Notes: generated from the letters alone by a model not told the origin. Positions 29,662-50,945 are shown, counted from the stretch's first letter. The stretch is DNA of 64,000 bases from Methanobacteriota archaeon (GCA_026394495.1 JAPKYE010000012.1:83-64082); one strand, 5' to 3'. A program made the numbers and translations.

Positions 29662-30714
29662 ATGGCTGAAAGAATATCGCTTGCTCAAGGGGCCGGCGGG
29701 GAACTCATGGATAAACTCATCAAAGAAAAAATTCTCACGTATTTCAAACAAGACAAATCAATTGAGGTTCCTCTGACATTCATGGATGATGCTGCGGTCA
29801 TTGACGATATAGTGTTCTCTACTGATTCTCATACAGTTCATCCACTTATTTTCCCAGGAGGCGATATCGGTTCACTAGCCGTCTCTGGAACGATTAACGA
29901 TATCGCTGTTATGGGTGCGAAACCACTTGCGCTCTCTGCAGGGTTCATCATCGAAGAAGGATTCATGATGGAGACGTTTGAAACCATCGTGAAAAGCATG
30001 GGGCGATGTGCACAGAAAGCATGTGTTCCTATCGTTACCGGTGACACAAAGGTAGTGGAAAAAGGAGCAATCCAAGAATTCATGATAAACACCAGCGGTA
30101 TAGGTAAACGAACAAAGCTTCTTGATTACAACATCAAGGAAGTGAAACAACATAGGAAATTCACAGGCAGATGGCTTCTTGATTCTAATCTGAAACCAGG
30201 TGATCGGATCATTGTTTCAGGAAACATCGCAGAGCATGGGATTGCGCTACTTTCATTTCGTGAAGGGTACGGGTTTGAAACCACGGTGAAATCAGATGTT
30301 GCACCGCTGAATGAGGTAATGACGAAGGTTCTTACAGTTGGCGGCGTGGTTTCAGCGAAAGATCCGACGCGTGGCGGGCTTGCAAATACGATAAATGAAT
30401 ATAGTGAGAAATCACATGTTGGAATCATTCTATCTGAAGAGAACATCCCGATTTCAACGGGTGTACAGTCTGCATGTGGACTGCTCGGACTTGATCCGCT
30501 GGAGATCGGTAATGAAGGAAAAGTTGTTCTTGGTGTTGTAAAAGAGAAAGCAGAAGAAATCCTTTCTGTGTTAAAGAGACATCCTTTGGGTAAACATGCC
30601 GCGATCATCGGAACAGTCACCGATAAAATAACTGGTGTTGTATTGGAAACAACAGTTGGTGGACGACGTATTTTGCATAAACCGTTAGGCGATCCAGTAC
30701 CGCGAATCTGTTAA
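29662..30714 (+). CDS. hypE: Hydrogenase maturation carbamoyl dehydratase HypE
   Basis: LAQGAGG, FPGGDIGSLAVSGTINDIAVMGA, TGDTKVV, DPTRGG, NEGK, terminal PRIC. Confidence 0.96.
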   Translation: MAERISLAQGAGGELMDKLIKEKILTYFKQDKSIEVPLTFMDDAAVIDDIVFSTDSHTVHPLIFPGGDIGSLAVSGTINDIAVMGAKPLALSAGFIIEEGFMMETFETIVKSMGRCAQKACVPIVTGDTKVVEKGAIQEFMINTSGIGKRTKLLDYNIKEVKQHRKFTGRWLLDSNLKPGDRIIVSGNIAEHGIALLSFREGYGFETTVKSDVAPLNEVMTKVLTVGGVVSAKDPTRGGLANTINEYSEKSHVGIILSEENIPISTGVQSACGLLGLDPLEIGNEGKVVLGVVKEKAEEILSVLKRHPLGKHAAIIGTVTDKITGVVLETTVGGRRILHKPLGDPVPRIC

Positions 30715-30778
30715 CAGAAGAAAAACACACGGGGGAATGTTTTAATAACCCCTGGAATTACACTGGAAACGACTGATA

Positions 30779-32965
30779 ATGAAGCTGATTTTCAAAGGAG
30801 TTGTGCAAGGGGTAGGGTTTCGCCCGACAATTTATCGTGTCGCACAAGAACTTAAGTTGAAAGGTTACGTCCTTAACAATGGTTCTGAAGTGGAAGTTGT
30901 CATTGATAAAAACGAGGATATTTTCCTAAAAAAACTACGAACGCATCTGCCGTCAACCGCATTGATCACTGAAGTTTTACGGCAACCAGATAATCGAATA
31001 TTTCGTGATTTTCGCATTCTTCATAGTAAAGACGGAGAACGTCATTCTCGAATTCCTGTGGATGTCTGTACGTGTGATGATTGTCTCAAAGAAATATTTG
31101 ATACAAAAAATAAACGGTATCAGTATCCTTTCACCAATTGCACTGTATGCGGGGCAAGGTTCAGTTTGGTCACTGATGTCCCCTATGATCGAGAACGCAC
31201 CTCGATGAACGATTTTCCTCTTTGTAATTCTTGTAAAAAAGAATACAAAAACCCTTTAGATCGCAGATATCATGCACAAACCATCTCATGTCCCAACTGT
31301 GGTCCAACATATCGCTTGTATGACGACAAAAAAAATGATCTCGACTGTGAACATGCGATCAAACGATTCGCAAAACATCTTGACAGCGGATGCATCGGCG
31401 TCATGAAATCCTTAGGCGGCATGCATCTTTGCTGTACTCTTGAGCAGCTTTCTCGATTCCGTAAGTGGTATCATCAACCACAGAAAGCGTTTGCGATCAT
31501 GGTCAGAAATATAGAAACCGCAGAGAAATATGCAGATATCACAAAAAAAGAACGAGAATTTTTACTATCAAAACAGAGACCAATCGTCCTTGTACAAAAA
31601 AAAACCGCAGAGCTTGCGTCACCTGGATTAAACACTATAGGATTGTATCTTCCCTACACTGGTACGCATCATATTTTGTTTTCATATCTGAAGGCCGATG
31701 CACTGGTCATGACATCCGCGAACATCCCTGGAGAACCCATGATTATCCATAACGAAGATGCGTTTTCTCTTAATGCTGAGATTTATCTTTTACATAACCG
31801 CGATATCCCTAACCGCATTGATGATTCGGTTGTACGAATCTGGAATGATCACACATTTTTTTTAAGGAAATCACGAGGTTTTATCCCTGATCCACTCCCG
31901 GTATCCTATCAGTCTAGGGTACTTGCTGTGGGTGCAGAAGAAAACATCTGCGGAGCAGTCTCAAGTGAAAAACAGGTATACATGACTCAACATATCGGCA
32001 ATGGACGATACTATCATTCTCTAAAGTTTTTAGAACAAAGCCTGCGGCATCTCATGAAACTTACCATACATGACCATCATATCGACGCAGTTACAATGGA
32101 TCTACATCCAAACTATGAAACAAAAAGAATCGCAGAACTATTTGCAAAAGAGTTTTCAGTTCTTTGTACTGCGGTGCAGCATCATTGGGCGCATGCAGCA
32201 TCTCTTCTTGTGGATAACGCCGTTGATGAAAGTGTTGTTCTCACTCTTGATGGTCTTGGCTACGGAGCTGATGGCACATTCTGGGGCGGAGAAGTTCTTA
32301 CTGCGGATTTTCATGGTTTTGAACGCGTAGGACATCTTGAAAACATCTCCCTTCTTGGTGGTGATCAGGCAACAAAAGATCCAAGGCGACTGGTGTTCGC
32401 AATATTCAACACATTCAAGAAAGAAAAATATTTCAGTGGAGACGAAGCAGATGTTCTTAAGAAACTCATGAGTACATCACCGCAATCAAGCAGTTTTGGA
32501 CGTATTCTCGATGCGCTTTCGTGTTACCTTGATATATGTACGAAAAGAACCTATGATGGGGAGCCTGCGATGAAACTGGAGCGGTATCTTGCCTCAGGAA
32601 AACCAACGATCTCATTTGAAGCGAAAGTGAAACAGGGAATCGTACAGACAATTGATGTTTTCCAGCAACTTGATGAAATCGCAAAACCAAAATATTCGGA
32701 AAAACAAAAAGCAGATATTGCTTTTTCTTTTGTGAAAGCAATAATTGATTCACTTACTGATATCGCTGTTGAATGCGCACAGAAAAAAGGCATTGAAACG
32801 ATAGGTCTGACTGGAGGCGTCTCCTATAACATACCTATCGTGGATATGGTGGCGACACAGGTGAAAAAAACTAATTTATCGTTTCTTGTGCATCATCGTG
32901 TCCCAAATGGAGATGGAGGAATTGCCGTGGGACAAAATGCGATTGTTGGTCATTGTATTTCGTAA
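30779..32965 (+). CDS. hypF: Carbamoyltransferase HypF
   Basis: GVVQGVGFRP, Zn fingers CDDC/CTVC/CNSC/CPNC, RYHAQ, QHHWAHA, DGLGYG, GDGGIAVGQ. Confidence 0.96.
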   Translation: MKLIFKGVVQGVGFRPTIYRVAQELKLKGYVLNNGSEVEVVIDKNEDIFLKKLRTHLPSTALITEVLRQPDNRIFRDFRILHSKDGERHSRIPVDVCTCDDCLKEIFDTKNKRYQYPFTNCTVCGARFSLVTDVPYDRERTSMNDFPLCNSCKKEYKNPLDRRYHAQTISCPNCGPTYRLYDDKKNDLDCEHAIKRFAKHLDSGCIGVMKSLGGMHLCCTLEQLSRFRKWYHQPQKAFAIMVRNIETAEKYADITKKEREFLLSKQRPIVLVQKKTAELASPGLNTIGLYLPYTGTHHILFSYLKADALVMTSANIPGEPMIIHNEDAFSLNAEIYLLHNRDIPNRIDDSVVRIWNDHTFFLRKSRGFIPDPLPVSYQSRVLAVGAEENICGAVSSEKQVYMTQHIGNGRYYHSLKFLEQSLRHLMKLTIHDHHIDAVTMDLHPNYETKRIAELFAKEFSVLCTAVQHHWAHAASLLVDNAVDESVVLTLDGLGYGADGTFWGGEVLTADFHGFERVGHLENISLLGGDQATKDPRRLVFAIFNTFKKEKYFSGDEADVLKKLMSTSPQSSSFGRILDALSCYLDICTKRTYDGEPAMKLERYLASGKPTISFEAKVKQGIVQTIDVFQQLDEIAKPKYSEKQKADIAFSFVKAIIDSLTDIAVECAQKKGIETIGLTGGVSYNIPIVDMVATQVKKTNLSFLVHHRVPNGDGGIAVGQNAIVGHCIS

Positions 32966-33004: not shown

Positions 33005-33550
33005 ATGATGAAGGAAATCGAAGTGAAAATACTAGATATCAACAGAAACAAATGTGAAAAAACATTAATTTCTCTTGGTGCAACGAAAATCTTTGATGGA
33101 GAAATAATCACCTTCTTTTACGATTATTCTGATTCTTCAATTCAGAAAGCAAAAAACCTGTTACGTTTGCGGAAAGCTGGAGCTAAATCGTTTCTCACGT
33201 TCAAACAATATGTAAAGGATTCTCATGCAAAAGTCCGTAAAGAATTCGATGTCGAGGTCTCTGATTTTGACACAACACATATGATTTTAAAAGGCCTTGG
33301 TTTAACTGCTACATTGTCTGTAAAAAAACATCGTAGTAGCTATATTCTCGATGATGTTCACTTTGAGTTTGATCGTCATCTTGATGAATACGCATATATC
33401 CCTGATTTTTTAGAAATCGAAGCAAAAAATCTCGAGTCACTGTATCAAGCAGCTTCGCTTTTTGGGTTCAATAAAGAAGAGTGCAGACCTTGGTCATTTT
33501 TTGATGTAGCCGCATATTATGAAAAAAGGAAAAATCTCCCAACACCGTAG
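33005..33550 (+). CDS. CYTH / triphosphate tunnel metalloenzyme (CyaB-like)
   Basis: EIEVK (ExExK), LRLRK, LTFK, KHRSSY, FLEIE. Confidence 0.88.
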   Translation: MMKEIEVKILDINRNKCEKTLISLGATKIFDGEIITFFYDYSDSSIQKAKNLLRLRKAGAKSFLTFKQYVKDSHAKVRKEFDVEVSDFDTTHMILKGLGLTATLSVKKHRSSYILDDVHFEFDRHLDEYAYIPDFLEIEAKNLESLYQAASLFGFNKEECRPWSFFDVAAYYEKRKNLPTP

Positions 33551-33635: not shown

Positions 33636-35801
33636 ATGAATAAAGATGCGGAAGCAACTTCTAGTAGGATTCTTGATAATAACAGCGAAACTCAATTAGC
33701 AATAGAAACAGTATCACTGGATAATCCAAAGCTCTTTATCAACCGTGAACTCAGCTGGCTTTGTATGCACGAGCGGATTCTGGAAGAGGCAAACGATAAA
33801 AATAATCCGCTGTTGGAGCGTGTGAAATTTCTTGCGATCTGCGGCAGCAACCTTGACGAATTCTTCATGGTTCGTGTCTCCGGGTTGAGGCGGCAACTGA
33901 AGAAAGGTGCGTTGAAACTGCCACCTGATGGGATGACGCCATTTGAGCAGCTCACCGCAATCAGAAAAGAAGTCCTCATTCTCTTAGAAAACCATACGTT
34001 ATGCTGGAGAGATCGTTTAATCCCTGAACTAAAAGATGCAGGACTTGAAATTCTTCGCATCAGCGATCTTGAGGCAAAAAAACAAACTGCGTTGAGGCAG
34101 TACTTCGAACACAATGTTTTTCCTACGTTGACTCCTCTTGCAATGGATCCTACGCATCCGTTTCCATTCATCTCAAACCTCAGCATCAACCTTGCAGTAA
34201 TTCTAAGAGACTCAGAAAAACATGAGAAATATGCGCGGGTAAAGATTCCCACAAAACTTTTTCATCGATTTATCTTGATCCCCTCTGAAACTGAGGCGAA
34301 AACAGAGCAATCAAAACGCCAAGAGTTCGTGTTTTTCGAGGATCTTATTGCAGCAAATCTTGATATGCTTTTTCCCGGGATGGAGATCGTTGGGGTGTAC
34401 CCGTTTCGGATAACAAGAGATGCAGAAATCGATATAGTCCTTGATCAGGCTGGTGATCTTCTTACTGCGATTGAGGAGAGCATTGAGACGAGACGTGTTG
34501 GTTCTCCAGTTCGTCTTGAGGTGTCACCTGATATGCCTGAGTATCTGAGAAATTTGTTTGTGAAAAACCTTGGGCTTACCGAGGATATGGTGTATCCGTT
34601 CGATGGGCCTTTGGCGTTCATTGATTTCTGGGAGCTTCTCAATATCGTTGATCGTCCTGATATGAAAGACACCCCGTTTCTCCCATTTACTCCTATGCAG
34701 CTTTCAGAGAAAACAGATATCTTCGCTGCGGTTTCACAGAAGGATTTTGTTCTGTATCATCCGTATGATAGCTTCAACGTCCTCGTAAATCTCTTGCATC
34801 AAGCAGCTCATGATCCTGATGTACTCTCAATTATGCTTACGATGTATCGGATTGATAAAAACTCACCAGTGATAGAATCATTAAAGCAGGCGAGACAAAA
34901 CGGCAAAGCAGTGACTGCTCTTATTGAGTTAAAAGCAAAGTTTGATGAGCAGAACAATATCCAATGGGCAAAAGAACTTGAACAAGAGGGGGTCCATGTC
35001 ATCTATGGTCTTGTTCATCTGAAGGTTCATGCAAAGCTTTGTCTGGTTGTACGAAGGGAAAAAGAGGGAATTGTGCGTTATTCGCATTTGAGTTCAGGAA
35101 ACTATAATGCGGTAACCGGGAGGATTTATGGGGATATTGGTTATCTCACTGCGAATAAAACGATAGGTGAAGATGTTTCTCATTTGTTCAATGCTCTTAC
35201 CGGGTACTCTGAGAAAGCGGAGTACAAAATGCTTTTGGTAGCACCCGCGAGATTACGACAAGAGATCATTGATCGTATCGACCGGGAAATCGAGTGTTTT
35301 AAGAAAACCGGTCAGGGGTATATCGCATGGAAACTCAATGGTTTGCTTGATAAAGAAGTGATTCAGGCGTTGTATCGTGCATCGATGGCAGGAATAAAAA
35401 TCGATTTGAATGTACGGGGTTTATGTTCTCTTCGCCCTGGAATCAAAGGAATAAGTGAAAACATTACGGTTACTTCGATTGTTGGTCGTTTTCTTGAGCA
35501 TGCACGGATTTATTATTTCTGGGACAAAGGAAACGAAGAAGTGCTTCTCGGCAGTTCAGATATGATGCCAAGAAACCTTGATCGTCGCGTGGAGGTGTTG
35601 TTTCCTGTTCCTGATCAAAAAGTAAAAAAAGCAATCATTGAGATTATGCTGAAAATCCATTTGAAGGATATGATGAAAGCACGACGTCTTCTGCCTGATG
35701 GAACCTATGAGAAGATCATGCCAAACGATGAAGAGAAGAGCCTGAATTCGCAGCTTTGGCTCATTAACAACCGGGGCATTTGGCATGGCATCGAAAAGTG
35801 A
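33636..35801 (+). CDS. ppk1: Polyphosphate kinase 1
   Basis: FINRELSWL, NLDEFFMVRV, HPFPFISN, YHPYDSF, ELKAKFDE, KVHAK, SSGNYN, GRFLEHARI, RNLDRRVE. Confidence 0.96.
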   Translation: MNKDAEATSSRILDNNSETQLAIETVSLDNPKLFINRELSWLCMHERILEEANDKNNPLLERVKFLAICGSNLDEFFMVRVSGLRRQLKKGALKLPPDGMTPFEQLTAIRKEVLILLENHTLCWRDRLIPELKDAGLEILRISDLEAKKQTALRQYFEHNVFPTLTPLAMDPTHPFPFISNLSINLAVILRDSEKHEKYARVKIPTKLFHRFILIPSETEAKTEQSKRQEFVFFEDLIAANLDMLFPGMEIVGVYPFRITRDAEIDIVLDQAGDLLTAIEESIETRRVGSPVRLEVSPDMPEYLRNLFVKNLGLTEDMVYPFDGPLAFIDFWELLNIVDRPDMKDTPFLPFTPMQLSEKTDIFAAVSQKDFVLYHPYDSFNVLVNLLHQAAHDPDVLSIMLTMYRIDKNSPVIESLKQARQNGKAVTALIELKAKFDEQNNIQWAKELEQEGVHVIYGLVHLKVHAKLCLVVRREKEGIVRYSHLSSGNYNAVTGRIYGDIGYLTANKTIGEDVSHLFNALTGYSEKAEYKMLLVAPARLRQEIIDRIDREIECFKKTGQGYIAWKLNGLLDKEVIQALYRASMAGIKIDLNVRGLCSLRPGIKGISENITVTSIVGRFLEHARIYYFWDKGNEEVLLGSSDMMPRNLDRRVEVLFPVPDQKVKKAIIEIMLKIHLKDMMKARRLLPDGTYEKIMPNDEEKSLNSQLWLINNRGIWHGIEK

Positions 35802-38127
35802 TGTAGTGTATCGAACTGAGCAGTCTGGTTTCTGTGTTTTCGGTTCGAATAGTCTATCAAAGTTTGTGTACACGTTGAAAAACCAGATTGAGGGTGCGAA
35901 ACGCGGGGATGATACTGAGTATGTGCATCAGTTGCGTGTCGCATCGCGCAGAATCCGCTCGACGATGTCGATTTTCAGACCGTGTTTTCCAAAGAAGAAT
36001 TATATGCATTGGGAATCTGAAGTAAGAAACGTAACTCGTTCCCTTGGCGTTGCAAGGGATACCGATGTGCAGATTTTTTTTGTAGAAAATTATCTGAAAA
36101 ACGTTCGCAGCCAAGCAACTAGATCCGGAATTGAATATCTTTTGGCAAAGCATCGGGAACGACGAATGGTGATGCAGCCTAGAGTTATTAGTACGCTTGA
36201 GCAGCTTTTGATTTCGCAGGCACTTGATCAGATGATCGCGCAGTGTAACACGGTTCTTAGTCAGTGTGCATCAGCTGAGACTGGTTCTCTTCGATCGGTA
36301 GGAGTATTGCGTGAGGCGCAGCGTCATATTTTGAAAAGACTTCGGAATTTTATTGATATGAAAGACTGTGTCCATAGGGAAGATGCATTTCTTTTGCATC
36401 ATGAAATGCGTATTGCAGCGAAGCATCTTCGGTATACGATGGAGATATTTTGCACTTTGTATGAGGATAATCTCAAACAATATGTGTCTGTGATGAAACA
36501 ATTTCAGGATGTTCTTGGGGAGATGCATGATTGCGATGTGTGGATTGAATTTATTCCTTCGTTTATCGAAACCATGAAAAAAGAAGAGATCACATCTGAA
36601 AAAAAAGACATTGATGTTGTTTCGATGGAAAAAGCGCTCCATGTATTTCTTGATCATGTGAAAAAACGAAGGCATTTGTTGTATAGCAATTTCGTATCGA
36701 TCTGGGATGCAAATATGAAACAAAAAACATTTGATCATCTCAGCGAACAAATTAGTATCATTATGCTTTCTGTTGCGGATTCAAATCAGAAGATCGCAAT
36801 AATTGCTGATCATCATGCGAATCTTCATGCATTGACGGCGGTAATAACCGATGCAAAGAAACATGGTGCCACCATGTTTTTGAATGCTGGGGATTTTGTT
36901 GGGTTTGGTGCATTTCCTAGCGAAGTTGTTTCTCTGCTTCACACTGAAGAGGTGTTAAGTGTTATCGGTAATTATGATCAAGATGTTCTTACGCTTATAA
37001 AAAAAGAAAAAAAGAAAACAAAAAACAAGGATGAAAAGTTTCTTTCTCTTGCCTACGCTAGTAAACATCTCTCAAAAACAGATGCTTCGTTTCTTCGTTC
37101 TCTGCCACAGGAGCTTCGGTTGAAGATTGATGACAAGCGTCTTCTTGTTACGCATGAAAGTCCTAAATCTATTGATGAACATCTTCGATTAAATACTCCG
37201 ATTGATCGCATGAGCGAAATTGCTAAAACCTCATCAGCAGATGTGATTATTGTTGGTCATTCCCATCAGCCATTTGTGAGAACGATCGATGGCGTCACGT
37301 TTGTTAACCCCGGGAGTGTCGGAAGACCCGATGATGGGAACCCATCGGCGTCATATGCATTGATGACAATAAATCCCTTCTCCGTTGAATTGCTGCGAGT
37401 CTCCTATGATGTTGATGCTGCAGTGGATGCGATACGAAAACATCATCTGCCTGAACGTTTTGCCCAGATGCTTCTGCATGGTGTCTCACTTGAGGCCATT
37501 GAGGAACTAGAGCATAAACGACTGCAAGAATCAGTAAAAAGTAAGACATCGCGGCTGAAACATGTTGAGCGTTTTGCAGAGAAGTTTGCTCGAGATCTCA
37601 CCCATCCCTATCACGTGAAAAAACTTGCGTTACATTTGTTCGATGCGCTAAAAGACCTCTGTTCTCTCAATGATGATGATCGATTTATGCTTGAATGTGC
37701 AGCGATCCTTCATGACATCGGCTGGTCTCAGGGGTGGAAAGGGCATCATAAAACCTCGTTGCGTTTTATTCTCAATGACACTGCTCTTCCGTTCACGATT
37801 CGAGAAAAATATATTGTGGGTAGCATTGCCCGGTATCACCGAAAAACGTTTCCACAGCAGGCACATTACCATTTCGCAGCACTGAACTTTGATGATCAGC
37901 GCAGAGTAGAGATCCTTTCTGCGATCATGCGGCTTGCAGATGCATTGGATGCTTCGCATCATTCCGTTGTGAAAACAGTTGCGGTTCATATTGAACACGA
38001 TGAGATAACGATCCGATGTGGTCCTGAAGGGAACACGGAGCTGGAGGAACACGCAATCGACAAGAAGAAAGCATTGTTTGAGGCGGTGTTCAAAAGGAGA
38101 CTTGTGGTACTATGGAACAGAAAATAG
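35785..38127 (+). CDS. CHAD + metallophosphoesterase + Ppx-type HD fusion protein
   Basis: CHAD: VHQLRVASRRIRS, HEMRIAAKHLRY, QDVLGEMHD. MPE: IADHHAN, GDFVG, GNYD, GHSH, NPGSVG. HD: AAILHDIG, ARYHRK, RLADALD. Confidence 0.9.
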   Translation: MASKSDVVYRTEQSGFCVFGSNSLSKFVYTLKNQIEGAKRGDDTEYVHQLRVASRRIRSTMSIFRPCFPKKNYMHWESEVRNVTRSLGVARDTDVQIFFVENYLKNVRSQATRSGIEYLLAKHRERRMVMQPRVISTLEQLLISQALDQMIAQCNTVLSQCASAETGSLRSVGVLREAQRHILKRLRNFIDMKDCVHREDAFLLHHEMRIAAKHLRYTMEIFCTLYEDNLKQYVSVMKQFQDVLGEMHDCDVWIEFIPSFIETMKKEEITSEKKDIDVVSMEKALHVFLDHVKKRRHLLYSNFVSIWDANMKQKTFDHLSEQISIIMLSVADSNQKIAIIADHHANLHALTAVITDAKKHGATMFLNAGDFVGFGAFPSEVVSLLHTEEVLSVIGNYDQDVLTLIKKEKKKTKNKDEKFLSLAYASKHLSKTDASFLRSLPQELRLKIDDKRLLVTHESPKSIDEHLRLNTPIDRMSEIAKTSSADVIIVGHSHQPFVRTIDGVTFVNPGSVGRPDDGNPSASYALMTINPFSVELLRVSYDVDAAVDAIRKHHLPERFAQMLLHGVSLEAIEELEHKRLQESVKSKTSRLKHVERFAEKFARDLTHPYHVKKLALHLFDALKDLCSLNDDDRFMLECAAILHDIGWSQGWKGHHKTSLRFILNDTALPFTIREKYIVGSIARYHRKTFPQQAHYHFAALNFDDQRRVEILSAIMRLADALDASHHSVVKTVAVHIEHDEITIRCGPEGNTELEEHAIDKKKALFEAVFKRRLVVLWNRK

Positions 38128-39707
38128 TTGCACCATCGGAGAACGTTGTCGGTTTTATCGACATCGGCACAAACTCCATTCGTCTGATGCTTGTTCAGCT
38201 CACCTCAAATAGTTCATATACAGTTCTTCGTGAGGAAAAAGAAGTGGTTCGTCTCGGTGAAAGTATTTTTAAAAAAGGTTTTTTTCAGCCGGAGACAATG
38301 ACTCGTGCATTGTTGGTGTGTAAAAAATTTGTTGAGGTATCTCGTGGTTTTGGCGCCAGAGAAATTATTGCGGTTGCAACTGCAGCTGCTCGAGAAGCTA
38401 AGAATCAGAAAGAGTTTCTTGAGCGGTTGCGGGAAGAGACCACTCTTGATGTTCGTGTTGTCTCTGGTGGGGAAGAAGCGCGTCTTATATATCTTGGTGT
38501 TTCCAGTGGTGTTCATGTTGATAAGAAGATCGCGGTCTTCGTTGACATCGGTGGTGGGAGCACGGAGATCATCATCGGTGATCAATTTCAGCATTATGAT
38601 ATTGAAAGTATGGGGCTTGGTGCGATTCGTCTGACGACGTTGTTTCTTTCTGGGCGTGGAAACGGTGTTGTTTCTCCTGAGACATATGAGAAAATGAAAC
38701 GGTATGTGAAAAACAAGTTGGTTCATGTGACAGAGCGGGTGAACCCTAAAAAGCTTGATGTTGCGTTTGGGAGTTCTGGTACGATCATCAATTTGGCTGA
38801 GATTGCAAGTAAAATGTTTGAGAGAACTGAGACAAAGCAGGACATGGTTCTTCGGTATAAGGATCTGCAGAAGGTGATAGCTAAACTGTGTTCTTTGTCT
38901 GTTGCGGAGCGTCGTTTGATTCCTGGGATTAACCCGGAGCGTGCTGATATCATCATTGGTGGTGCGGTGATTATTGAGACGATCATGGAGGATTTGGAAC
39001 TCAAAGAATTGTTTGTGAGTTATCGTGATATGCGGTATGGGATGCTTGTGGATTATCTTTCTCGGCATGCAGGGTATCCGCAACATAATGAGACATCGGT
39101 GCGAAAAAGTAGTGTGCTTCGTCTAGGTCATTCCTGTAACGTAAATGAACATCATGCGAACCGGGTTGTGTCTCTTTCTCTTCAGTTGTTTGATGGTTCA
39201 AAAGCGATAAAGCTTCATGATCTGGGAGACGATGAGCGGGAGTTGTTAGAGTACGCTGCGTTTCTTCATGATATCGGTGATTTTATTTCGTTTCGTGGTC
39301 ATCATCTCCATTCCTATTATATTATCAACAACGCTGAGCTTCTTGGTTTTGATCAGACTGAGATCGGAATTATCGCTAATGTAGCCAGGTTTCATCGAAA
39401 GAAACTTCCGCGCAAGAAGGAGCCTTCGCTAATTGAGCTTGATAAACATTCGATTAAAACCGTTGTGATTCTTTCGACGTTGCTGCGTATCGCTGAGAAA
39501 CTTGACCGCAGTCATACCGATCTTGTGCAGAAGATAGAGTTTGTTTTACATGGTGAAAACAAGGTTGAGCTTTTACTTGTATGTTCGAAACAGGATTGTG
39601 AGTTTGAGCGATGGGGCGTCGAAGAGGATTCTGATGCGTTTGAAAAGGTGTTTGAGAAACGATTGTTTGTTTCTGTGATAAAAAACGAGCCGCAGATCCT
39701 AGCGTAA
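38112..39707 (+). CDS. ppx: Exopolyphosphatase Ppx/GppA with HD domain
   Basis: IDIGTNSIRL, ATAAAREAKN, SGGEEARL, DIGGGSTE, GSSGT, RADIIIGG, LHDIG. Confidence 0.95.
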   Translation: MEQKIVAPSENVVGFIDIGTNSIRLMLVQLTSNSSYTVLREEKEVVRLGESIFKKGFFQPETMTRALLVCKKFVEVSRGFGAREIIAVATAAAREAKNQKEFLERLREETTLDVRVVSGGEEARLIYLGVSSGVHVDKKIAVFVDIGGGSTEIIIGDQFQHYDIESMGLGAIRLTTLFLSGRGNGVVSPETYEKMKRYVKNKLVHVTERVNPKKLDVAFGSSGTIINLAEIASKMFERTETKQDMVLRYKDLQKVIAKLCSLSVAERRLIPGINPERADIIIGGAVIIETIMEDLELKELFVSYRDMRYGMLVDYLSRHAGYPQHNETSVRKSSVLRLGHSCNVNEHHANRVVSLSLQLFDGSKAIKLHDLGDDERELLEYAAFLHDIGDFISFRGHHLHSYYIINNAELLGFDQTEIGIIANVARFHRKKLPRKKEPSLIELDKHSIKTVVILSTLLRIAEKLDRSHTDLVQKIEFVLHGENKVELLLVCSKQDCEFERWGVEEDSDAFEKVFEKRLFVSVIKNEPQILA

Positions 39708-39772: not shown

Positions 39773-40393
39773 ATGGGAAAAACCGTTAAGTTAACCTTAA
39801 CGCCAACGGAAAAAAAGTTTGTGAACAAGTTAAAAGGTCCAGATCATAAAAATGCTGATGTGTTGCGAAACGCACTCTGGTTTTATGTGGAACATGCTGA
39901 GGATTCTCCGATTCATTCCGGGATGGACTCTGAAAAAACATTTCCTGTAAAAGAAAAGAATAAAGAAGCAGAGTTGTCTTCAACGCAGAATCCGCTGTTT
40001 CAGGATTATCTTGCGCATTTGAAAGATGAGATTTTTTTTCTTCGAGAGGAAAACGTAAAAAGCCAGGAGCAGAACCGTAAGTTTCAGGATAATGTTGAGG
40101 ATGAAATCAAACGTTTGCATGATTCGCAGAATCAATTGATGAATCTTGTACAACCTGTGAAAACAGTTCCAAAATCAGATCCGGTGTCCTTGGTGGATAC
40201 GGCTGTTGTTGTCTCAGAGCCTGCGGTGGTTCAATCAGATTTTCTTGATGAGATCGATCGTGTGTTAAAAGAGAGAACGACGCAGGTTGAAATCACTGGT
40301 GTTTCCGGAAAAAATAGACGTACTGGGTCGCATGAGAACAAGTTTTTTTCTGGTTTGTATTTTCTGCGGCGAAAACACGATAAATCTTTGTAA
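39773..40393 (+). CDS. Hypothetical protein: RHH-like N-terminus plus coiled coil
   Basis: KTVKLTLT (beta strand) ... ADVLRNALWFY (helix), then heptad-rich YLAHLKDEIFFLREEN...EIKRLHD. Confidence 0.65.
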   Translation: MGKTVKLTLTPTEKKFVNKLKGPDHKNADVLRNALWFYVEHAEDSPIHSGMDSEKTFPVKEKNKEAELSSTQNPLFQDYLAHLKDEIFFLREENVKSQEQNRKFQDNVEDEIKRLHDSQNQLMNLVQPVKTVPKSDPVSLVDTAVVVSEPAVVQSDFLDEIDRVLKERTTQVEITGVSGKNRRTGSHENKFFSGLYFLRRKHDKSL

Positions 40394-40457: not shown

Positions 40458-41300
40458 ATGGTTTATGAGAATTTGATGGTAAAACCCGAAAAAAAAATAA
40501 CGTTAAAAAAATTTGATACTGGGTACACAGATGGGTATCGAAACAAGAAAGAATCTGAAGAAAATCTTCCGCAGTATCTTCAGAAACTTCTGGATCTTCA
40601 GTATCTTCTCTACGCAGATAAACGATATGGTTTTTTGGTTATTCTTCAGGGTGTTGATGCAGCAGGTAAAGACGGCGTATTCAGAAATGTGATTACTGCG
40701 TTGAATCCTCAAGGGACAAAAGTCTGGGGTTTTGAGATACCTTCCTCAGAGGAACTTGGTCATGATTATTTGTGGAGGGTGCATCAACGACTCCCGAATC
40801 GCGGGTATATCGGTGTGTTCAACAGGTCTCATTATGAGGATGTTTTGATCGTGCGGGTGAAGAATTTGGTGCAAAAAGAGATGTGGAAAAAAAGGTATGA
40901 ACAGATCAATAATTTTGAGCAATATCTCTACGAGAACAATATTCGTATTCTGAAAATATTTCTCCATATCTCAAAACAGGAGCAGGAGAAAAGGCTTCTT
41001 GCACGACTTTTGGAGCCGCATAAGAACTGGAAGTTCTCAACTGATGATCTGGTCGAGCGGCAGTACTGGGATGAATATATGGTTGCGTATGAGGATATGC
41101 TCAATAAAACCAGTACGAAGTATGCGCCGTGGTATGTGATCCCTGCGGATAATAAATGGTTCCGTAATATTGCGGTTGCAAAAATCATGGTCGATGCTCT
41201 TCAGAAATTAAAGTTGAAATGGCCTGATCCATCTAGGGAGATCCAGAAATATATTGCGATCGCAAAGAAAACTGGGAAGCTGCCGCCAGTGCCGCAGTGA
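40458..41300 (+). CDS. ppk2: Polyphosphate kinase 2 (probably class III)
   Basis: LQGVDAAGKDG, HDYLWR, FNRSHYEDVL, ISKQEQEKRL, KNWKFS, APWYVIPADNKW. Confidence 0.94.
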   Translation: MVYENLMVKPEKKITLKKFDTGYTDGYRNKKESEENLPQYLQKLLDLQYLLYADKRYGFLVILQGVDAAGKDGVFRNVITALNPQGTKVWGFEIPSSEELGHDYLWRVHQRLPNRGYIGVFNRSHYEDVLIVRVKNLVQKEMWKKRYEQINNFEQYLYENNIRILKIFLHISKQEQEKRLLARLLEPHKNWKFSTDDLVERQYWDEYMVAYEDMLNKTSTKYAPWYVIPADNKWFRNIAVAKIMVDALQKLKLKWPDPSREIQKYIAIAKKTGKLPPVPQ

Positions 41301-41360: not shown

Positions 41361-41840
41361 ATGGATATCTGGAGTAAAGCTCTTTTACCGGGTCATCGAT
41401 ATTCTTATGTGGATGAGAATCTCGCTGATGAAATAAAGGAGTTGAACAGGCGTATCGCTGAACTAGAAAAGATGCTGTCGATGGTCCTTGCCCCTCTTCA
41501 AAATGTGGGGAAAACAACGCAAAATTACCTTAGATTAACTGGGTTACTTCTTGATCATGGAGGTCTTACACCTGATCTTATTCTCCCGGATGTCAAAGAC
41601 CCTATATCACGGGAGATTGTCCGCGTCCTTATGAATAAAAGCGAACAAAATATCTCTCAGATCACAGATCTTGTTCGCAGTAAACGAGGTACTGCTTCTC
41701 GCAGGATTATCCGTGAAAAAATACAGGAATTAGCGGAGAAAAACGTCATTCAACAGCAGCAGAAAGGCTCAAGGACTGTCTATGGTTTGACTGAATCAGT
41801 GATAAAAAAGTGGTCACAAATGCTCGGTTTTACTTTATAG
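41361..41840 (+). CDS. Coiled-coil + winged-helix DNA-binding protein (true start may be GTG at 41409)
   Basis: EIKELNRRIAELEK coil; DPISREIVRVL, NISQITD, SRRIIREKIQEL wHTH pattern. Confidence 0.75.
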   Translation: MDIWSKALLPGHRYSYVDENLADEIKELNRRIAELEKMLSMVLAPLQNVGKTTQNYLRLTGLLLDHGGLTPDLILPDVKDPISREIVRVLMNKSEQNISQITDLVRSKRGTASRRIIREKIQELAEKNVIQQQQKGSRTVYGLTESVIKKWSQMLGFTL

Positions 41841-41890
41841 CATGACCACCGTACTATTGATTAGAAAATGTATAAAGGAGGAATAAAAAA

Positions 41891-42169
41891 ATGAGCAATC
41901 ATGAAGGAATGCCAGACCCGGAAAAGATAAAGGAAATATTGGATGTTGTCTCTGAGAAAATCCCTGGGCTTCTCAAGCAACTTAGTGAGCTTTTGTACGG
42001 TCCGAAAAGCGCGAAACAATACGCGGAAGCCGCAGCGATTTTTTACAAGGAGCTTAAAGGCGCTGGGATGACCGATGAGCAGGCTTTTGATCTCACACGA
42101 CAGTACATGTCAACATTGAACCTCGGTAATATGTTCAAGAATTTTTCTGTACACGGCAAAGACGACTAA
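41891..42169 (+). CDS. Small helical hypothetical protein
   Basis: AGGAGG Shine-Dalgarno upstream; FYKELKGAGMTDEQAFDLTRQY motif. Confidence 0.8.
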   Translation: MSNHEGMPDPEKIKEILDVVSEKIPGLLKQLSELLYGPKSAKQYAEAAAIFYKELKGAGMTDEQAFDLTRQYMSTLNLGNMFKNFSVHGKDD

Positions 42170-42189
42170 CCGCATATCCTGTAGAGAAC

Positions 42190-42450
42190 GTGATTATGGC
42201 TGAACATGGTACAGAAAAAAAGAACCCAAACATGATAAAGATGTTTGGTATGGTCCTGCCTTTACTCCCGGGGATGATCGTCCGATTCGGTGGATCATTC
42301 CTCCGTTTTAAAGGCGCTGCGAAAAAAGGTGGGTCGATTTTTCATCGTGAACTCCTCAATCAGGGGATCGATGAGGCTACTGCAGAGAAACTCACGGAAG
42401 AGTATCTTGAAGGAAGTAACCTGATGAAATATATTCAGTTTCTCAGGTGA
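42190..42450 (+). CDS. Small helical hypothetical protein, related to the upstream gene
   Basis: FHRELLNQGIDEATAEKLTEEY aligns with the motif in 41891-42169. Confidence 0.75.
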   Translation: MIMAEHGTEKKNPNMIKMFGMVLPLLPGMIVRFGGSFLRFKGAAKKGGSIFHRELLNQGIDEATAEKLTEEYLEGSNLMKYIQFLR

Positions 42451-46201: not shown

Positions 46202-46618
46202 TCATATGTTTATCTTAAATTTTGTCTTCTCAGGATTATTTCTAAAAATATCTGTAATCCACTGCTTTATATCGTCTCTAACACGGCGAAAATCATCGAT
46301 ATCTAAAGGATCAGTAAATCCTTTATGAATAATTTTTTTTCCTGGGAAAAACGGACATCCTTCTTTTGCATTATCGCATACTGTCACAACATAATCAAAG
46401 TTTTTTTCTCTGAATTCCTCCATGCTTTTTGATCGGTGTACGGAGATATCAATCCCTATTTCTTTCATCACTGTAATCGCAAACGGATGAACTGATGTTG
46501 GCAGAAGACCCGCGCTATTAACTTCATAGCGGTCTCCATAAATATTGCGAAGTAAACCTTCGGCTATCTGCGAACGAGCAGCATTATGCGTACAGAGAAA
46601 CAACACCGTCTTCTTCAT
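46202..46618 (-). CDS. arsC: Arsenate reductase ArsC (LMW-PTP fold)
   Basis: LFLCTHNAARSQIAE, SAG, TVCD...CP, DP...FRRVRD. Confidence 0.82.
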   Translation of the reverse strand: MKKTVLFLCTHNAARSQIAEGLLRNIYGDRYEVNSAGLLPTSVHPFAITVMKEIGIDISVHRSKSMEEFREKNFDYVVTVCDNAKEGCPFFPGKKIIHKGFTDPLDIDDFRRVRDDIKQWITDIFRNNPEKTKFKINI

Positions 46619-47268
46619 TATTTGATCTCTTTTCTTTTTCCAGTCACCATGTACGTGATTTGCTCAGCCATATTACAGGCATGATCCCCGCAGCGTTCCA
46701 GATATCGAGCAATCATGATATAATGCGTGCAGATTGTGATGTTTTTAGGGTCCTCCATCATATATGTGATACATTCCCTGAAAATGGAATACCTAAGTTC
46801 ATCGACATCATCATCTCGCTCAGAAAAATCTTTTAACAAGGTAAGATCACCGTTTTGAAACGCTGTAAATGCATCATGGATCATTTTGCATACAATCTCA
46901 TTCATATGAGGGATACTAATAATTTTTTTAATATGGGGCCCTGGTGCTATTTCCTTTGTCAGATTAGCAATATCTTTTCCGTATCTGCCGATTCGATCAA
47001 TGGAGATAATCATCCTCAGACAACATGCAATCGTCCGCATATCTTTTGCCATTGGTTGATACAATGCGATTAACTGCAACGCCTCCTCTTCAAGATCGAC
47101 ATTCATCTGCGCCAGCTTCTTCTTCTTAGAAAGTACCCAATCTGCCTTTTCAACATCAAGAGTTTTCAACGATTCAACAGAAGTACACAGCATCGAGGTT
47201 GCAAGATTACCCAGTTTCAACACATCTTTTTTCAATCCTTCTAATTCTGTATGGAATTTCTGTACCAT
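46618..47268 (-). CDS. phoU: Phosphate transport regulator PhoU
   Basis: YQPMAKDMR, IDRIGRY, DDDVD, LERCGDHACN. Confidence 0.93.
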   Translation of the reverse strand: MVQKFHTELEGLKKDVLKLGNLATSMLCTSVESLKTLDVEKADWVLSKKKKLAQMNVDLEEEALQLIALYQPMAKDMRTIACCLRMIISIDRIGRYGKDIANLTKEIAPGPHIKKIISIPHMNEIVCKMIHDAFTAFQNGDLTLLKDFSERDDDVDELRYSIFRECITYMMEDPKNITICTHYIMIARYLERCGDHACNMAEQITYMVTGKRKEIK

Positions 47269-47279
47269 TTTACTTTCAC

Positions 47280-48044
47280 CTATCCAAATCTCCCTGTGAT
47301 ATAATTTTCAGTAAGCTCCTCACGTGGGTTTTCAAAGATCTGTTTCGTCTCACCGTATTCAATAAGTTTTCCCAGGTACATATACGCTGCGTACTCGCTC
47401 ACCCGTGCCGCCTGCTGCATATTATGAGTAACAATAATCACCGTATAATGCTGTTTCAGATCATAGATAAGATCCTCTATTTTTGCGGTTGCAATCGGAT
47501 CAAGAGCAGAACATGGTTCATCCATGAGAATAATCTCAGGTTCAATTGCTAGCGAACGTGCAATACATAACCTCTGTTGCTGCCCACCGGAAAGACACAT
47601 CGCAGGTTCATATAACCGGTCGTGTACCTCATCCCATAATGCAGCATCATGGAGACTTTTTTCTACGAGTCTATCAAGAATTTTTTTATCATTTACCCCT
47701 TGAACCCTCGGTCCGTACGCAACATTTTCATAAATGGATTTTGGAAATGGATTTGGTTTTTGAAACACCATCCCGACCTTTTTTCGTATCTCCACTGCAT
47801 CAACCGATGGCCCGTAAATGTCGTTCTCGTTGAAAAACACCTGCCCTGTGATCCTGCAGTTATTGATCACATCGTTCATCCTGTTGAAACAACGAATAAG
47901 CGTAGATTTTCCGCATCCTGAAGGACCAATCAGTGCAGTTACCTTGTTTGATAAAATGCTAAGATTAATATCTTGAAGTACGTGTTTTTCTCCATACCAG
48001 AGGTTTAGGTTTTTTGTTGTAATGATTTCTTTTGTTTTTATCAT
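47280..48044 (-). CDS. pstB: Phosphate ABC transporter ATPase PstB
   Basis: [57 protein letters not shown]. Confidence 0.97.
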
Positions 48045-48051
48045 ACAGTTA

Positions 48052-49995
48052 TCACCATTTCATAGTTTTTTTATAATGATTTCTTAACAGGATTGCGATC
48101 AGATAAAATCCAATGACGACAAGTAACAACACAAGGGCTGTTCCTGCTTGTTGCGCACGGGAATCTGGTACTGAGGTTGCTAGCATGTACAGATGAAATG
48201 GTAATGCATTGACTGAATCAAAAAGCGAAGAAGGAATAAAACCTGAAACGACAACTGCGGTGAACATGATCGGGGCTGTCTCGCCTGCTGCTCTGCCAAT
48301 CCCAAGGATTGCGCCAGTGAGAATACCTGGTGCTGCGGGAGGGAGAACCACTTTTTTTATCGTCTGCCATTTTGTTGCGCCAAGAGCAAGACTGCCTTCA
48401 CGTAGGATTTGCGGAACACTTTTCAATGCCTCTTCTGTTGTCCGTATGATTGTGGGAAGAATCATGAATGCAAGGGTGATCTGACCTGCAAGGAGTGAAA
48501 TACCCATTTTCAAATAAAGTACAAGAAACGCAAAACCGAACAACCCAAAGACAATCGACGGCGTCCCATTTAACAAATCTGCTCCTGCTCGAATGATTTT
48601 TGTTACTCTTCCCTCCCGTGTATATTCATTCAGGTAAATTGCTGCCCCTACACCTAAAGGCAACGCGATGAAAAGCGCACCGCCGACTAAATAAAACGTT
48701 CCGACAATCGCAGGAAAAATCCCTCCAGATCTGCCAAGGTTACTTGGCCATTCCGTGAGAAAACCCCAGTTTAATGCTCCGGCTCCGTTGAAGATAATAT
48801 ATGAAAGGATGATCCCTAAAAAAATAAGAACAAGAACGATCGCACTAAAAAGAGCGGTAAACGCAATTCGTTGAATATTTTTTGCAGAAATCTTTTTATT
48901 GAGATAATAACAAATACCAGCGACAACAAGTAATGAAATGGTGATGAGAACGCCAACAGCAACATATAATACACCAATAATTATTAGGATCATAACCCAG
49001 AAGAAATAGCGTTTTATCTTCTGATTAGTTTCATAGCGAAGTTTGAACCGTTTTTTTGATGAAGACGTATATTTCTCTTTGAGTCTGTTTAAAATTACTG
49101 TCGCGATGATATTAACAATGAGCGTGATGACCAACAGAAGAAGTGCGATGCCAAACAATGCATGGTAATGATCACTTCCGGTTGCAACCTCACCCATTTC
49201 AATTCCTAATGTCGCAGTAAGAGTTTTTATCGGCGCAAATACATTTGTAATCGGTGTCGGGATGAGTCCATAGGTTGGATTACCACAGACCATCATCACC
49301 GCCATGGTTTCACCTATGGCTCGACCCATTCCAAGAATGATCGCTGCGGTAATCCCTGAAAATGCTGAGGGGACAATGACTTTACTGATGGTTTGCCATC
49401 GTGTTGCGCTGAGTGCAAGTGAGCCTTCTTTGTATTCTTTTGGAACAGAGCTTATTGCATCTTCAGCTACGCTTGTGATTGTCGGTATCGCCATGATTCC
49501 AAGAAGGATTGATCCTGCAAGCCATGATTCTCCACTTGGTTGATTAAAACCGATGCGTAACCATGTTGTGAGTACTATTAACCCAAAAAAACCATAGACG
49601 ACGGAGGGGATACCTGCGAGTAATTCGATTGCGGGTTTTATGATTGCGCGCATTTTTGGTGAAGCGATTTCTGAGATGAAGATCGCGCTTCCAATGCTAA
49701 GAGGGATGGCGATTACCATTGCACCAAATGTAACCAGGAGAGTTCCAACGATAAGTGGAAATGCACCATAAAGCGGTGGAGTTCCGGTTGGATACCAACG
49801 GGAACCTGAGAGAAATTCCCATAGTCCAGCGGTTTGAAAAATCGAATAGCCATCTTGAAATAAAAAATATATGATTGAGAAGATAATGATAATCGATGAG
49901 ATGGCGGTGAGGAAAAAAATTGTTTTGATGCTTGTTTCTTTTATTTTTTTTAATGATATAAAAAAATGGAGGAAGCGTGGTAGTCTTCGACTCAT
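48052..49995 (-). CDS. pstCA: Fused phosphate permease PstC-PstA
   Basis: N-half [11 protein letters not shown]...[10 protein letters not shown] (PstC); C-half [14 protein letters not shown]...GRAAGETAP (PstA); one 647-aa frame. Confidence 0.92.
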
Positions 49996-50066: not shown

Positions 50067-50945
50067 TTAAATGAATTCATTCCAGTTTGAAATATCTCCT
50101 TTGTAAATTGCTTTCAGCTGTTCTAATGTAAGCGTGTCGACATAGGTGTTTTCAGGGTTCACGATAATTGCAATGCCGTCCTTTGCAATGATGTATTTTA
50201 CAAGGCCTAAGCTGCTTTCTGATGATTTGAGATCGCGCGATGACATGCCGATATCAACAGTGTCTTGTCCAACTGCGGTGATCCCGGCTCCTGATCCTGT
50301 GGAGCTGATTGTAATCGATACATCCGAATATATCTTTGAAAACGATTCTTTTGCTTTTTCAGCGATGGGAAACACTGTTGTTGACCCACCTATTTTTAGG
50401 GAACCGGTAACTGTTTTTCCCGAAGAATTATATGGCTGGCTGTCTACGAGAGGGACAAATCCTTCTTCTTCGACGATTGCTTGACCGTTGCTGCTTTGTA
50501 TATATTCGATGAATTCTTTTGCAGCTCCTGTCGCCTCTCCTTTTGTAAACATATAGAGATCTCTTGAGATGGGATATGTTCCTGCAAGAACATTTGCAAC
50601 AGTTGCTGAAATATTGTTAATTTTTAGTGCTTTTACGTCGGTATTGAGAAAGCCTAAGCCAACGTATCCGATGGCACCAGGTGTTTGTGATATTGTTTGA
50701 TAGATGCCGCCGTTTGAATTTTTCTCTTGTAGTGTCTCGCTAAAGTTTTCGCTGTTCATGACATGGCTGAAGAAAAACTCTCGTGTTCCGGATGTACTAT
50801 CTCTTCCTACAAGAACGATGGGTAGTCCTTCTGTTTTTTGTGTGCAACCACTAAATAATGATATGCAGATTACGCCGATGACGATGAGGCCTAATAACAG
50901 TTTTTTGAATTCTTTGTTTTTTGTTTCTTTGCTTATATTAATCAC
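50067..50945 (-). CDS. pstS: Phosphate-binding lipoprotein PstS, circularly permuted
   Basis: Lipobox-like FSGC; GRDSTSGTRE, PGAIGYVG, YPISRDLY come before GSTTVFP, GSGAG, DIGMSSR, DGIAIIVNP. Confidence 0.9.
   Translation of the reverse strand: MINISKETKNKEFKKLLLGLIVIGVICISLFSGCTQKTEGLPIVLVGRDSTSGTREFFFSHVMNSENFSETLQEKNSNGGIYQTISQTPGAIGYVGLGFLNTDVKALKINNISATVANVLAGTYPISRDLYMFTKGEATGAAKEFIEYIQSSNGQAIVEEEGFVPLVDSQPYNSSGKTVTGSLKIGGSTTVFPIAEKAKESFSKIYSDVSITISSTGSGAGITAVGQDTVDIGMSSRDLKSSESSLGLVKYIIAKDGIAIIVNPENTYVDTLTLEQLKAIYKGDISNWNEFI

Follow-up and report, generated by a model that had tools for sequence, protein, structure and literature searches.

A conserved CHAD–metallophosphoesterase–HD fusion protein encoded between ppk1 and ppx in an archaeal polyphosphate gene cluster

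We have analyzed here a 64,000-nucleotide stretch of DNA from a Methanobacteriota archaeon (GCA_026394495.1, JAPKYE010000012.1:83-64082; hereafter the window), which carries a phosphate island that includes genes for polyphosphate (polyP) metabolism. The gene order on the + strand is HypE-like, HypF, CYTH, PPK1, X, Ppx/GppA, a 206-residue protein, PPK2 and a small, weak winged-helix protein (Table 1). Gene X, the subject of this report, encodes a 780-residue protein in which a CHAD module is followed by a metallophosphoesterase (MPE) module and by an HD-type module related to the C-terminal domains of Ppx. We find that X is real, conserved and mechanistically suggestive, and far less singular than a first-pass annotation, made from the sequence alone, had held.

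The open reading frame (ORF) of X runs from an ATG at 35785 to a TAG at 38125-38127 and is uninterrupted, as judged from both the ORF call and the translation. Inspection of the two junctions base by base places the ppk1 TGA at 35799-35801, giving a 17-nt overlap with the start of X, and the ppx ATG at 38112, giving a 16-nt overlap with its stop. Both overlaps reported in the first-pass annotation are thus exact, as are its placement of X between ppk1 and ppx, its description of a single 780-residue ORF with three domains (all three of which have Pfam matches), and the motifs that it quoted, every one of which is present in the translation. A contig assembled separately from another read set (Logan SRR20698646, 10,437 bp) contains the identical 780-residue ORF with the same neighbors. 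Since this independent contig agrees and hundreds of relatives of X have the same length, a stop codon or frameshift between the domains, which the first-pass annotation had named as a possible weakness of its own proposal, is excluded. The idea that the triple fusion is an artefact of assembly or gene calling that joins separate genes could draw on one relative (L079) with an in-frame TAA between its phosphoesterase and HD parts, and on other loci where CHAD and MPE-HD are separate genes. Against it stand the uninterrupted frame of the window, the identical ORF from another read set, the 72 full-length ORFs found in 64 reference loci, and the three-domain composition of all of the best 120 database relatives. 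The artefact reading is refuted, and we assign it practically no probability.

Table 1. Coordinates, strand and identifying evidence for gene X, its modules and the surrounding genes in the window
Feature	Coordinates	Strand	Description and evidence
hypE-like and hypF	29662-32965	+	[NiFe]-hydrogenase maturation; directly upstream of the CYTH gene
CYTH protein	33005-33550	+	Stand-alone CYTH / triphosphate-tunnel protein, 181 aa; Pfam CYTH E 7.4e-17; ExExK at residues 5-9
ppk1	33636-35801	+	Polyphosphate kinase 1; all four PPK1 Pfam domains
Gene X	35785-38127	+	780-aa CHAD-metallophosphoesterase-HD (Ppx domain III/IV) protein; ORF, translation, Pfam, AlphaFold2 model
X, CHAD module	35815-36756	+	Residues ~11-324; long type = two four-helix bundles; Pfam, Foldseek
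X, metallophosphoesterase module	36757-37494	+	Residues ~325-570; helical cap and C-terminal extension; Pfam, TIGR00040, Foldseek
X, HD-type module	37552-38124	+	Residues ~590-780; paralogous to Ppx domains III-IV; Pfam, Ppx alignment, Foldseek
ppx	38112-39707	+	Ppx/GppA exopolyphosphatase with its own domain III; PF02541 E 1.3e-60; PF21447 E 2.9e-34
206-aa protein	39773-40393	+	ppx-ppk2 interval; no Pfam or NCBIfam match
ppk2	40458-41300	+	Polyphosphate kinase 2; Pfam PPK2 E 9.6e-73
Small proteins after ppk2	41361-42450	+	159 aa (weak ArsR-like winged helix), 92 aa and 86 aa
PhoU	46618-47268	-	Phosphate-uptake operon
PstB	47280-48044	-	Phosphate-uptake operon
PstC/A-like permease	48052-49995	-	Phosphate-uptake operon; fused, 647 aa
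PstS-like binding protein	50067-50945	-	Phosphate-uptake operon
AbrB/MazE-PhoU regulator	51083-52090	+	Beside the pst-phoU genes

The three modules of X were assigned with Pfam models judged against their curated cut-offs. CHAD (PF05235) matches residues 30-257 with an E-value of 1.5e-48 (166.2 bits against a cut-off of 25.6), Metallophos_2 (PF12850) matches residues 336-529 (3.9e-28; 98.8 bits against 27), and Ppx-GppA_III (PF21447) matches residues 590-739 (1.2e-17; 64.8 bits against 27.3), with the general HD model (PF01966) also above its threshold (29.5 bits against 22). These values are far beyond chance, and for each module Pfam and NCBIfam point the same way as the sequence and fold matches in the PDB. 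An AlphaFold2 model of the protein, with a mean predicted local distance difference test (pLDDT) score of 88.6 and a predicted template modeling score (pTM) of 0.75, is all-helical across residues 11-324, and a Foldseek comparison of the model with the PDB returned three separate sets of matches, one for each module. The CHAD module matches the C. tepidum CHAD-polyP complex (6qva/6qv7) with a target template modeling (TM) score of 0.72-0.75, the phosphoesterase module on 3rqz, 1nnw/2gju and SapH (3qfm) with target TM scores of 0.82-0.84, and the C-terminal module on a C-terminal fragment of Y. pestis Ppx (3rf0) with a target TM score of 0.75.

The combination recalls the YgiF-type CYTH-CHAD triphosphatases (E. 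coli YgiF; 5A60/5A61), in which a catalytic phosphohydrolase is likewise fused to a polyP-binding CHAD and which likewise occur in polyP gene neighborhoods. It differs in that the CHAD of X is N-terminal and of the long type, and in that its partners are a metallophosphoesterase and an HD module, not a CYTH tunnel. No Pfam match to a CYTH domain was found in X, and because the CYTH protein of this locus is encoded by a separate gene X is not a YgiF-type enzyme. Likewise, the N-terminal catalytic domain of Ppx-GppA (PF02541, domains I-II) gave no match to X at E-values up to 0.01, and X is therefore not a Ppx. The phosphoesterase module reaches the cut-off of the YfcE subfamily model TIGR00040 (59.7 against 56.25) and falls short of that for the E. 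coli YfcE equivalog NF006988 (49.6 against 117), which places X, by these profiles, within the broad YfcE subfamily model only and outside the YfcE equivalog.

Conservation at the three sites was assessed in a 38-member alignment and in representatives at 50% identity split by architecture class. Averaged over columns, the most frequent residue accounts for 0.66 of the 38 members in CHAD, 0.67 in the phosphoesterase core and 0.71 in the HD module, compared with 0.44-0.53 in the linkers, a pattern that indicates purifying selection on all three modules. The CHAD residues H48, R51, R55, R56, R58, R91, R127, H206, R209, K213, R216 and H248 show little or no variation. In the phosphoesterase module the motifs are D342-H343-H344, G369-D370, G395-N396-Y397-D398, G491-H492-S493-H494 and N508-P-G-S-V-G513, and the predicted ligands D342, H344, D370, N396, H457, H492 and H494 are kept in ~95-100% of the representatives of every class. 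The HD module has the motifs ILH643-D644-IG and RLAD719-ALD722, and its set of H607, H643, D644, H654, H685, D719 and D722 is kept in at least 96% of the representatives, again in every class. The view of the first-pass annotation that X is tethered to polyP and has two intact catalytic-type sites is supported by this retention of the ligands in ~95-100% of members. A helical cap beside the phosphoesterase site (residues 399-445) carries a net charge of +2 to +11 and is positive in 38/38 members, and such a basic cap would suit an anionic substrate.

The same conservation bears on whether X might be mainly a structural, phosin-like granule protein, its Ppx-like domain III bridging Ppx and PPK1 to the granule and its two sites binding metal or phosphate without turnover. 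There is precedent for such a role in the stand-alone CHAD proteins, which bind to granules and for which no activity is known (PMC10892726, PMC6537752), and Ppx itself forms dimers in which domain 3 touches the N-terminal domain (PMC11234463), so that the paralogous domain III of X could dock onto Ppx. The retention of seven phosphoesterase and seven HD ligands at ~95-100% through four architectures and at no more than 50% identity is, however, the signature of catalysis. Relaxed sites look different: neither DxH nor GD survives in 1nnw and 2gju from Pyrococcus. We consider a purely structural X to be quite improbable.

One departure from the canonical phosphoesterase motifs is Tyr397, which stands where the first-pass annotation expected the histidine of GNHD. 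The tyrosine is indeed present, and it is no peculiarity of this copy. Among the representatives the commonest residues at position 397 are Tyr, Phe, Val and Ala, and His is not one of them; motif III reads GNHD in the nearest solved relative, 3rqz, and GNWE in SapH. The motif III histidine (GNHD/E) is not a metal ligand. Since the substitution is family-wide and the active enzyme SapH has an aromatic Trp at the same position, Tyr397 is, on these alignments, a subfamily trait and not a lesion, and we reject the notion that it inactivates the phosphoesterase. SapH, the Sphaerobacter protein 3rqz and the Pyrococcus proteins share with X both the fold and a C-terminal YDV...LPE extension, and SapH the aromatic residue in motif III as well (GNWE compared with GNYD in X). 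These relatives differ from X in being stand-alone proteins of ~250 residues that lack CHAD and HD modules, and they are only 23-29% identical to it; 3rqz and 1nnw/2gju are uncharacterized, and the motifs of the Pyrococcus pair are degenerate.

The C-terminal module has its closest counterpart in the neighboring gene. Aligned with the adjacent Ppx, the C-terminal 174 residues of X show 36% identity to its residues 348-520, and the alignment reaches both C-termini. We conclude that X carries a copy of Ppx domains III-IV, in which domain III precedes a small beta/alpha domain. The long-form Ppx/GppA proteins (E. coli 1u6z, D. radiodurans 8jgo, Y. pestis 3rf0) therefore resemble X in its C-terminal 190 residues, which are paralogous to their domains III-IV, and differ from it in possessing PF02541. 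Comparison of 73 X-type modules with 59 neighboring archaeal Ppx proteins shows that both groups keep H607, H643, D644, G646, H654, H685, D722 and H725 with few or no exceptions. Position 719, by contrast, is Asp in 72/73 X-type modules and Glu in 59/59 Ppx proteins; Tyr684, which is Phe in Ppx, and residue 653 also differ systematically. In a neighbor-joining tree the X-type modules all fall in one pure clade, apart from Ppx domain III, and mean identity is 0.50 within the X-type modules, 0.64 within Ppx and 0.31 between the two groups. The pure clade and these identities together indicate one old duplication.

The first-pass annotation had set RLADALD in X against RIAEKLD in the neighboring Ppx. 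That contrast is correct and proves to be diagnostic of the two groups. Its implication that the Ppx site is lost is wrong: the equivalents of H607, H643, D644, H654, H685, D722 and H725 are invariant in 59/59 neighboring archaeal Ppx proteins, and the only change to the shared His/Asp set is the fixed Asp-to-Glu replacement at 719. We accordingly reject the suggestion that the neighboring Ppx has lost its HD site. Among more distant proteins, D. radiodurans Ppx retains most of the HD set, with LHEAG and ARYHRK, and H. pylori Ppx/GppA has lost the HD pair. In the D. radiodurans enzyme catalysis resides in the N-terminal domain and domain 3 is treated as a dimer contact (PMC11234463).

A search of a 5.8-billion-protein collection with X gave 705 matches, of which the best 120 clusters (at 90% identity) were inspected for domains. 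All 120 carry PF05235, PF12850 and PF21447, nearly all are 755-850 residues long, and they are 42-92% identical to X. The triple-fusion family thus comprises at least 120 clusters at 90% identity, and the architecture is common, contrary to the rarity that the first-pass annotation implied. Its statement that the architecture had not been characterized fares better, as we found no paper on CHAD-MPE-HD, MPE-HD or CHAD-HD proteins among the literature searchable in full text; an earlier passing mention, for example in the work that defined CHAD, is possible. The source databases name these relatives, by automatic annotation, 'YfcE family phosphodiesterase', 'CHAD domain-containing protein' or 'putative phosphoesterase'. 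X and its relatives are best described, on present comparisons, as a large, automatically catalogued family for which we found no publication, and as a variant of the CHAD-tethered polyP-metabolizing enzymes with what appear to be new catalytic partners.

A scan of reference genomes, one per species, identified 75 related loci; both search patterns lie inside CHAD, so the 559 matching stretches are not a measure of family size. Full-length X copies, 72 in all, are present at 64 of the 75 loci, which belong mostly to Bathyarchaeia and otherwise to Methanomassiliicoccales and other Thermoplasmatota, Ca. Methanolliviera and one member of the Altiarchaeia. X is also found on contigs binned as Limnocylindrales, Acidoferrum and [Eubacterium] cellulosolvens (L014, L037, L060, L083). 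On these the X protein is 65-80% identical to Bathyarchaeia copies or has archaeal-looking neighbors (OB_Ssb-like, zf_Tbcl_2), and they are probably mis-binned archaeal contigs rather than bacterial members of the family.

The gene order seen in the window is widely shared. The next gene upstream, on the same strand as X, is ppk1 in 57 of the 65 loci where this could be assessed, and the next gene downstream is ppx in 53 of 70. CYTH genes occur at 46 of the 75 related loci, typically just upstream of ppk1, and a PPK2 gene is near X at 49 of the 75. At some loci ppk1-X occurs without a ppx inside the fetched flanks, which extend up to 10 kb in L050 and L054 and are shorter in L002, L052 and L083; such loci are compatible with X having a polyphosphatase activity of its own. 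Many Bathyarchaeia (L005-L008, L011, L012, L014, L017, L021, L022, L039, L075) have two full-length paralogues in the arrangement ppk1-X1-ppx-X2, and these second copies are ~41-45% identical to the window protein, rising to ~50% over part of their length.

The nearly universal adjacency to ppk1 also raises the alternative that X regulates polyP synthesis, either by activating or priming PPK1 or as a phosphoprotein phosphatase acting on the PPK1 phospho-histidine or on polyphosphorylated proteins. The overlap of the ppk1 stop with the X start would be compatible with translational coupling of the two proteins, and the metallophosphoesterase superfamily includes protein phosphatases, one of which, lambda phosphatase (1g5b), is among the fold matches to X; the closest phosphoesterase relatives, on the other hand, are not protein phosphatases. 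In Sulfolobus the polyP operon encodes a CHAD protein and also the phosphohistidine phosphatase SixA (PMC12995831). A closer parallel is Ppx1 of Lacticaseibacillus paracasei, which is encoded in a ppx1-ppk-ppx2 operon by a second Ppx-related gene beside ppk, has a role unlike that of a classical exopolyphosphatase, is required for polyP accumulation and enhances Ppk in vitro (bioRxiv 10.1101/2023.12.22.573107). That protein, however, is a paralogue of the N-terminal domain of Ppx in which the catalytic motifs have been lost, whereas X lacks this domain and has two strictly conserved metal sites that are predicted to be intact. We therefore regard a regulatory X, with its hypothetical contact to PPK1, as improbable, although less so than a purely structural one.

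The modules of X are found in other combinations. An exhaustive search with phmmer through 1.84 billion representatives (50% identity) returned 818 proteins at E-values of 1e-30 or below. The best 150 were assigned to classes using domain models derived from the family alignment, and Pfam confirmed the class of ten of them. Among these 150 there are 49 untruncated MPE-HD proteins, 35 CHAD-MPE-HD, 26 CHAD-HD and 22 CHAD-MPE. At two apparently bacterial loci (L080/L081), pst genes and phoU are followed by genes for a 341-residue CHAD protein, a 462-residue MPE-HD protein and a 334-residue Ppx, and then by PPK1, with the CHAD, MPE-HD and ppx genes overlapping one another by 4 nt. The 334-residue Ppx of these loci (L080 8386-9390, L081 3411-4415) is without domain III, the HD-type domain III being instead on the phosphoesterase gene, and a single domain III appears to suffice for the operon there. 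L082 likewise has a CHAD gene followed by an MPE-HD gene. The CHAD genes of L080-L082 encode proteins of the stand-alone type, comparable to the granule proteins PptA (a phosin), SsCHAD and CtCHAD, which share with X the CHAD fold, a conserved basic surface and a position beside ppk or ppx (PMC6537752, PMC10892726) and differ from it in having no catalytic domain; placed directly before MPE-HD, such a gene completes a split form of X. At L078 a CHAD-HD protein occupies the slot between ppk1 and ppx with identical 17- and 16-nt overlaps. At L079 (6001-8301; GCA_963986855.1, CAXCYV010000008.1) CHAD-MPE and HD lie in one frame with a single TAA in the linker (...KAVLNEV*CFMCPSN...) and an ATG two codons after it, which may reflect a genuine split of the gene, an error in sequencing or readthrough. 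The split and fused loci show the same system cut in different places, and this fusion and fission of neighboring genes, classic Rosetta-stone evidence, implies that the modules work together.

We propose that X is a polyP-granule-associated metallophosphohydrolase of a conserved CYTH-ppk1-X-ppx(-ppk2) operon for polyP turnover, a reading to which we give an about even chance. From sequence and modeled structure we infer the binding of polyP by the CHAD of X, catalysis at either of its sites, the substrate, and the choice between endo and exo cleavage. The long-type CHAD would hold X on long-chain polyP at the granule, in keeping with the specific binding of polyP by CHAD domains at nanomolar to micromolar affinity (PMC6537752). 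The two-metal phosphoesterase site would then hydrolyze phosphoanhydride bonds of the CHAD-bound polymer. The same study found that CHAD stimulates the triphosphatase fused to it in YgiF, and its authors raised the possibility that an enzyme might become processive through fusion to CHAD (PMC6537752). In X the cuts would most likely be internal or non-processive, and the resulting ends and short chains would be substrates for Ppx, a processive exo-enzyme, and for the CYTH tri/tetraphosphatase. The C-terminal module, paralogous to domains III-IV of Ppx, would provide a second strictly conserved His/Asp metal site, and probably acts as a polymer clamp and oligomerization surface, as domain III does in Ppx.

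The specifically endolytic version of this mechanism is more doubtful than the general proposal, and we hold it only tentatively. Yeast Ppn2 is a metallophosphatase of the PPP superfamily that acts only as an endopolyphosphatase, cleaving polyP internally (PMC7381174). It is a functional precedent only; Ppn2 and Ppn1 are eukaryotic vacuolar enzymes without CHAD or HD modules. Endopolyphosphatases are at present listed for eukaryotes only (PMC13318637). A bolder extension, which we likewise regard as a tentative possibility, is that MPE-HD, fused to CHAD or encoded beside a CHAD gene, would be the missing prokaryotic endopolyphosphatase, part of a granule-bound CHAD/Ppx/PPK1 machine that is shuffled between polypeptides, and that the HD site shared with domain III of archaeal Ppx would be a second, unrecognized catalytic or metal-dependent center.

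A different substrate has also to be considered. X might hydrolyze small phosphoanhydrides, such as diadenosine tetraphosphate (Ap4A) and other dinucleoside or nucleoside polyphosphates, nucleoside triphosphates, or the products of PPK1, PPK2 or Ppx at the granule (tri-, tetra- and pyrophosphate), with CHAD serving only to localize it. The best characterized structural relative, SapH, is by its PDB title an asymmetric Ap4A hydrolase and phosphodiesterase (target TM 0.84), and the phosphoesterase domain also matches the putative diadenosine tetraphosphatase 2qjc. HD domains commonly act on nucleotides, and PPK2 and CYTH are encoded in the same cluster. The identity to SapH, however, is only 23-24%; a long-type CHAD and a Ppx-type polymer-handling module would be hard to explain in an enzyme for small molecules; and the operon already has a CYTH enzyme, a family whose archaeal members act on tri- and tetraphosphate (P3 and P4; PMC12995831). 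We judge this alternative unlikely, while placing it somewhat ahead of a regulatory role.

Several observations weigh against assigning polyP hydrolysis to X. SapH, its nearest characterized phosphoesterase relative, acts on nucleotides and not on polyP, and no catalytic role has been reported for domain III of the characterized Ppx enzymes (D. radiodurans study, PMC11234463). The window copy alone has Glu458 (codon 37156-37158) directly after the ligand His457, where the family has Gly or Ala and a 92%-identical relative (P0001) has Gly. Finally, CHAD-HD proteins without any phosphoesterase, 26 of the best 150 representatives, can occupy the same operon slot, implying that the phosphoesterase site is not the sole essential activity there and that the HD module must carry an important function of its own.

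The remainder of the window provides the setting for this operon. The closest named relatives of the window PPK1 are 60-66% identical and all archaeal, from Thermoplasmatota, Methanomassiliicoccales, Methanolliviera, Methanosarcinaceae and Bathyarchaeia; no tRNA genes were found in the window. The gap between hypF and the CYTH gene is 39 nt, and the same gene order is present on an independent contig (L076). With the NCBIfam model for 'class IV adenylate cyclase' the CYTH protein scores 60.1, just above the cut-off of 57.95, a name that is probably wrong for a CYTH protein in a polyP operon; the archaeal CYTH proteins that have been studied are tri/tetraphosphatases (PMC8233210, PMC12995831). 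By eye, the N-terminus of the 206-residue protein is ribbon-helix-helix-like and is followed by a polar coiled-coil-like stretch. A 205-residue gene product is encoded in the same place beside the 92%-identical relative of X, with nothing similar in the 75 related loci. Relatives of the 159- and 92-residue proteins are encoded in Methanomassiliicoccus-type loci (L047, L059, L064), opposite in strand to X and ~8-9 kb away from it, and the two may be a conserved regulator pair. The pst-phoU operon lies ~5 kb beyond the polyP cluster.

Prokaryotic polyP metabolism is usually described in terms of PPK1, PPK2 and Ppx, joined recently by CYTH enzymes and passive CHAD granule proteins. Our analysis shows that many archaea, and some apparently bacterial loci, have a further conserved component directly between ppk1 and ppx, with two metal sites that appear intact. 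If X does cleave polyP, it would supply a missing enzymatic step by which granule-bound long chains are made accessible to Ppx; if it instead regulates PPK1, it would represent a new control point. The strict conservation of the HD site in both X and domain III of archaeal Ppx suggests that the accepted description of the domain, as a clamp without catalysis, leaves something out. Bathyarchaeia and Methanomassiliicoccales are abundant in anoxic soils, sediments and guts, and the X family may therefore matter for phosphorus cycling in such habitats.

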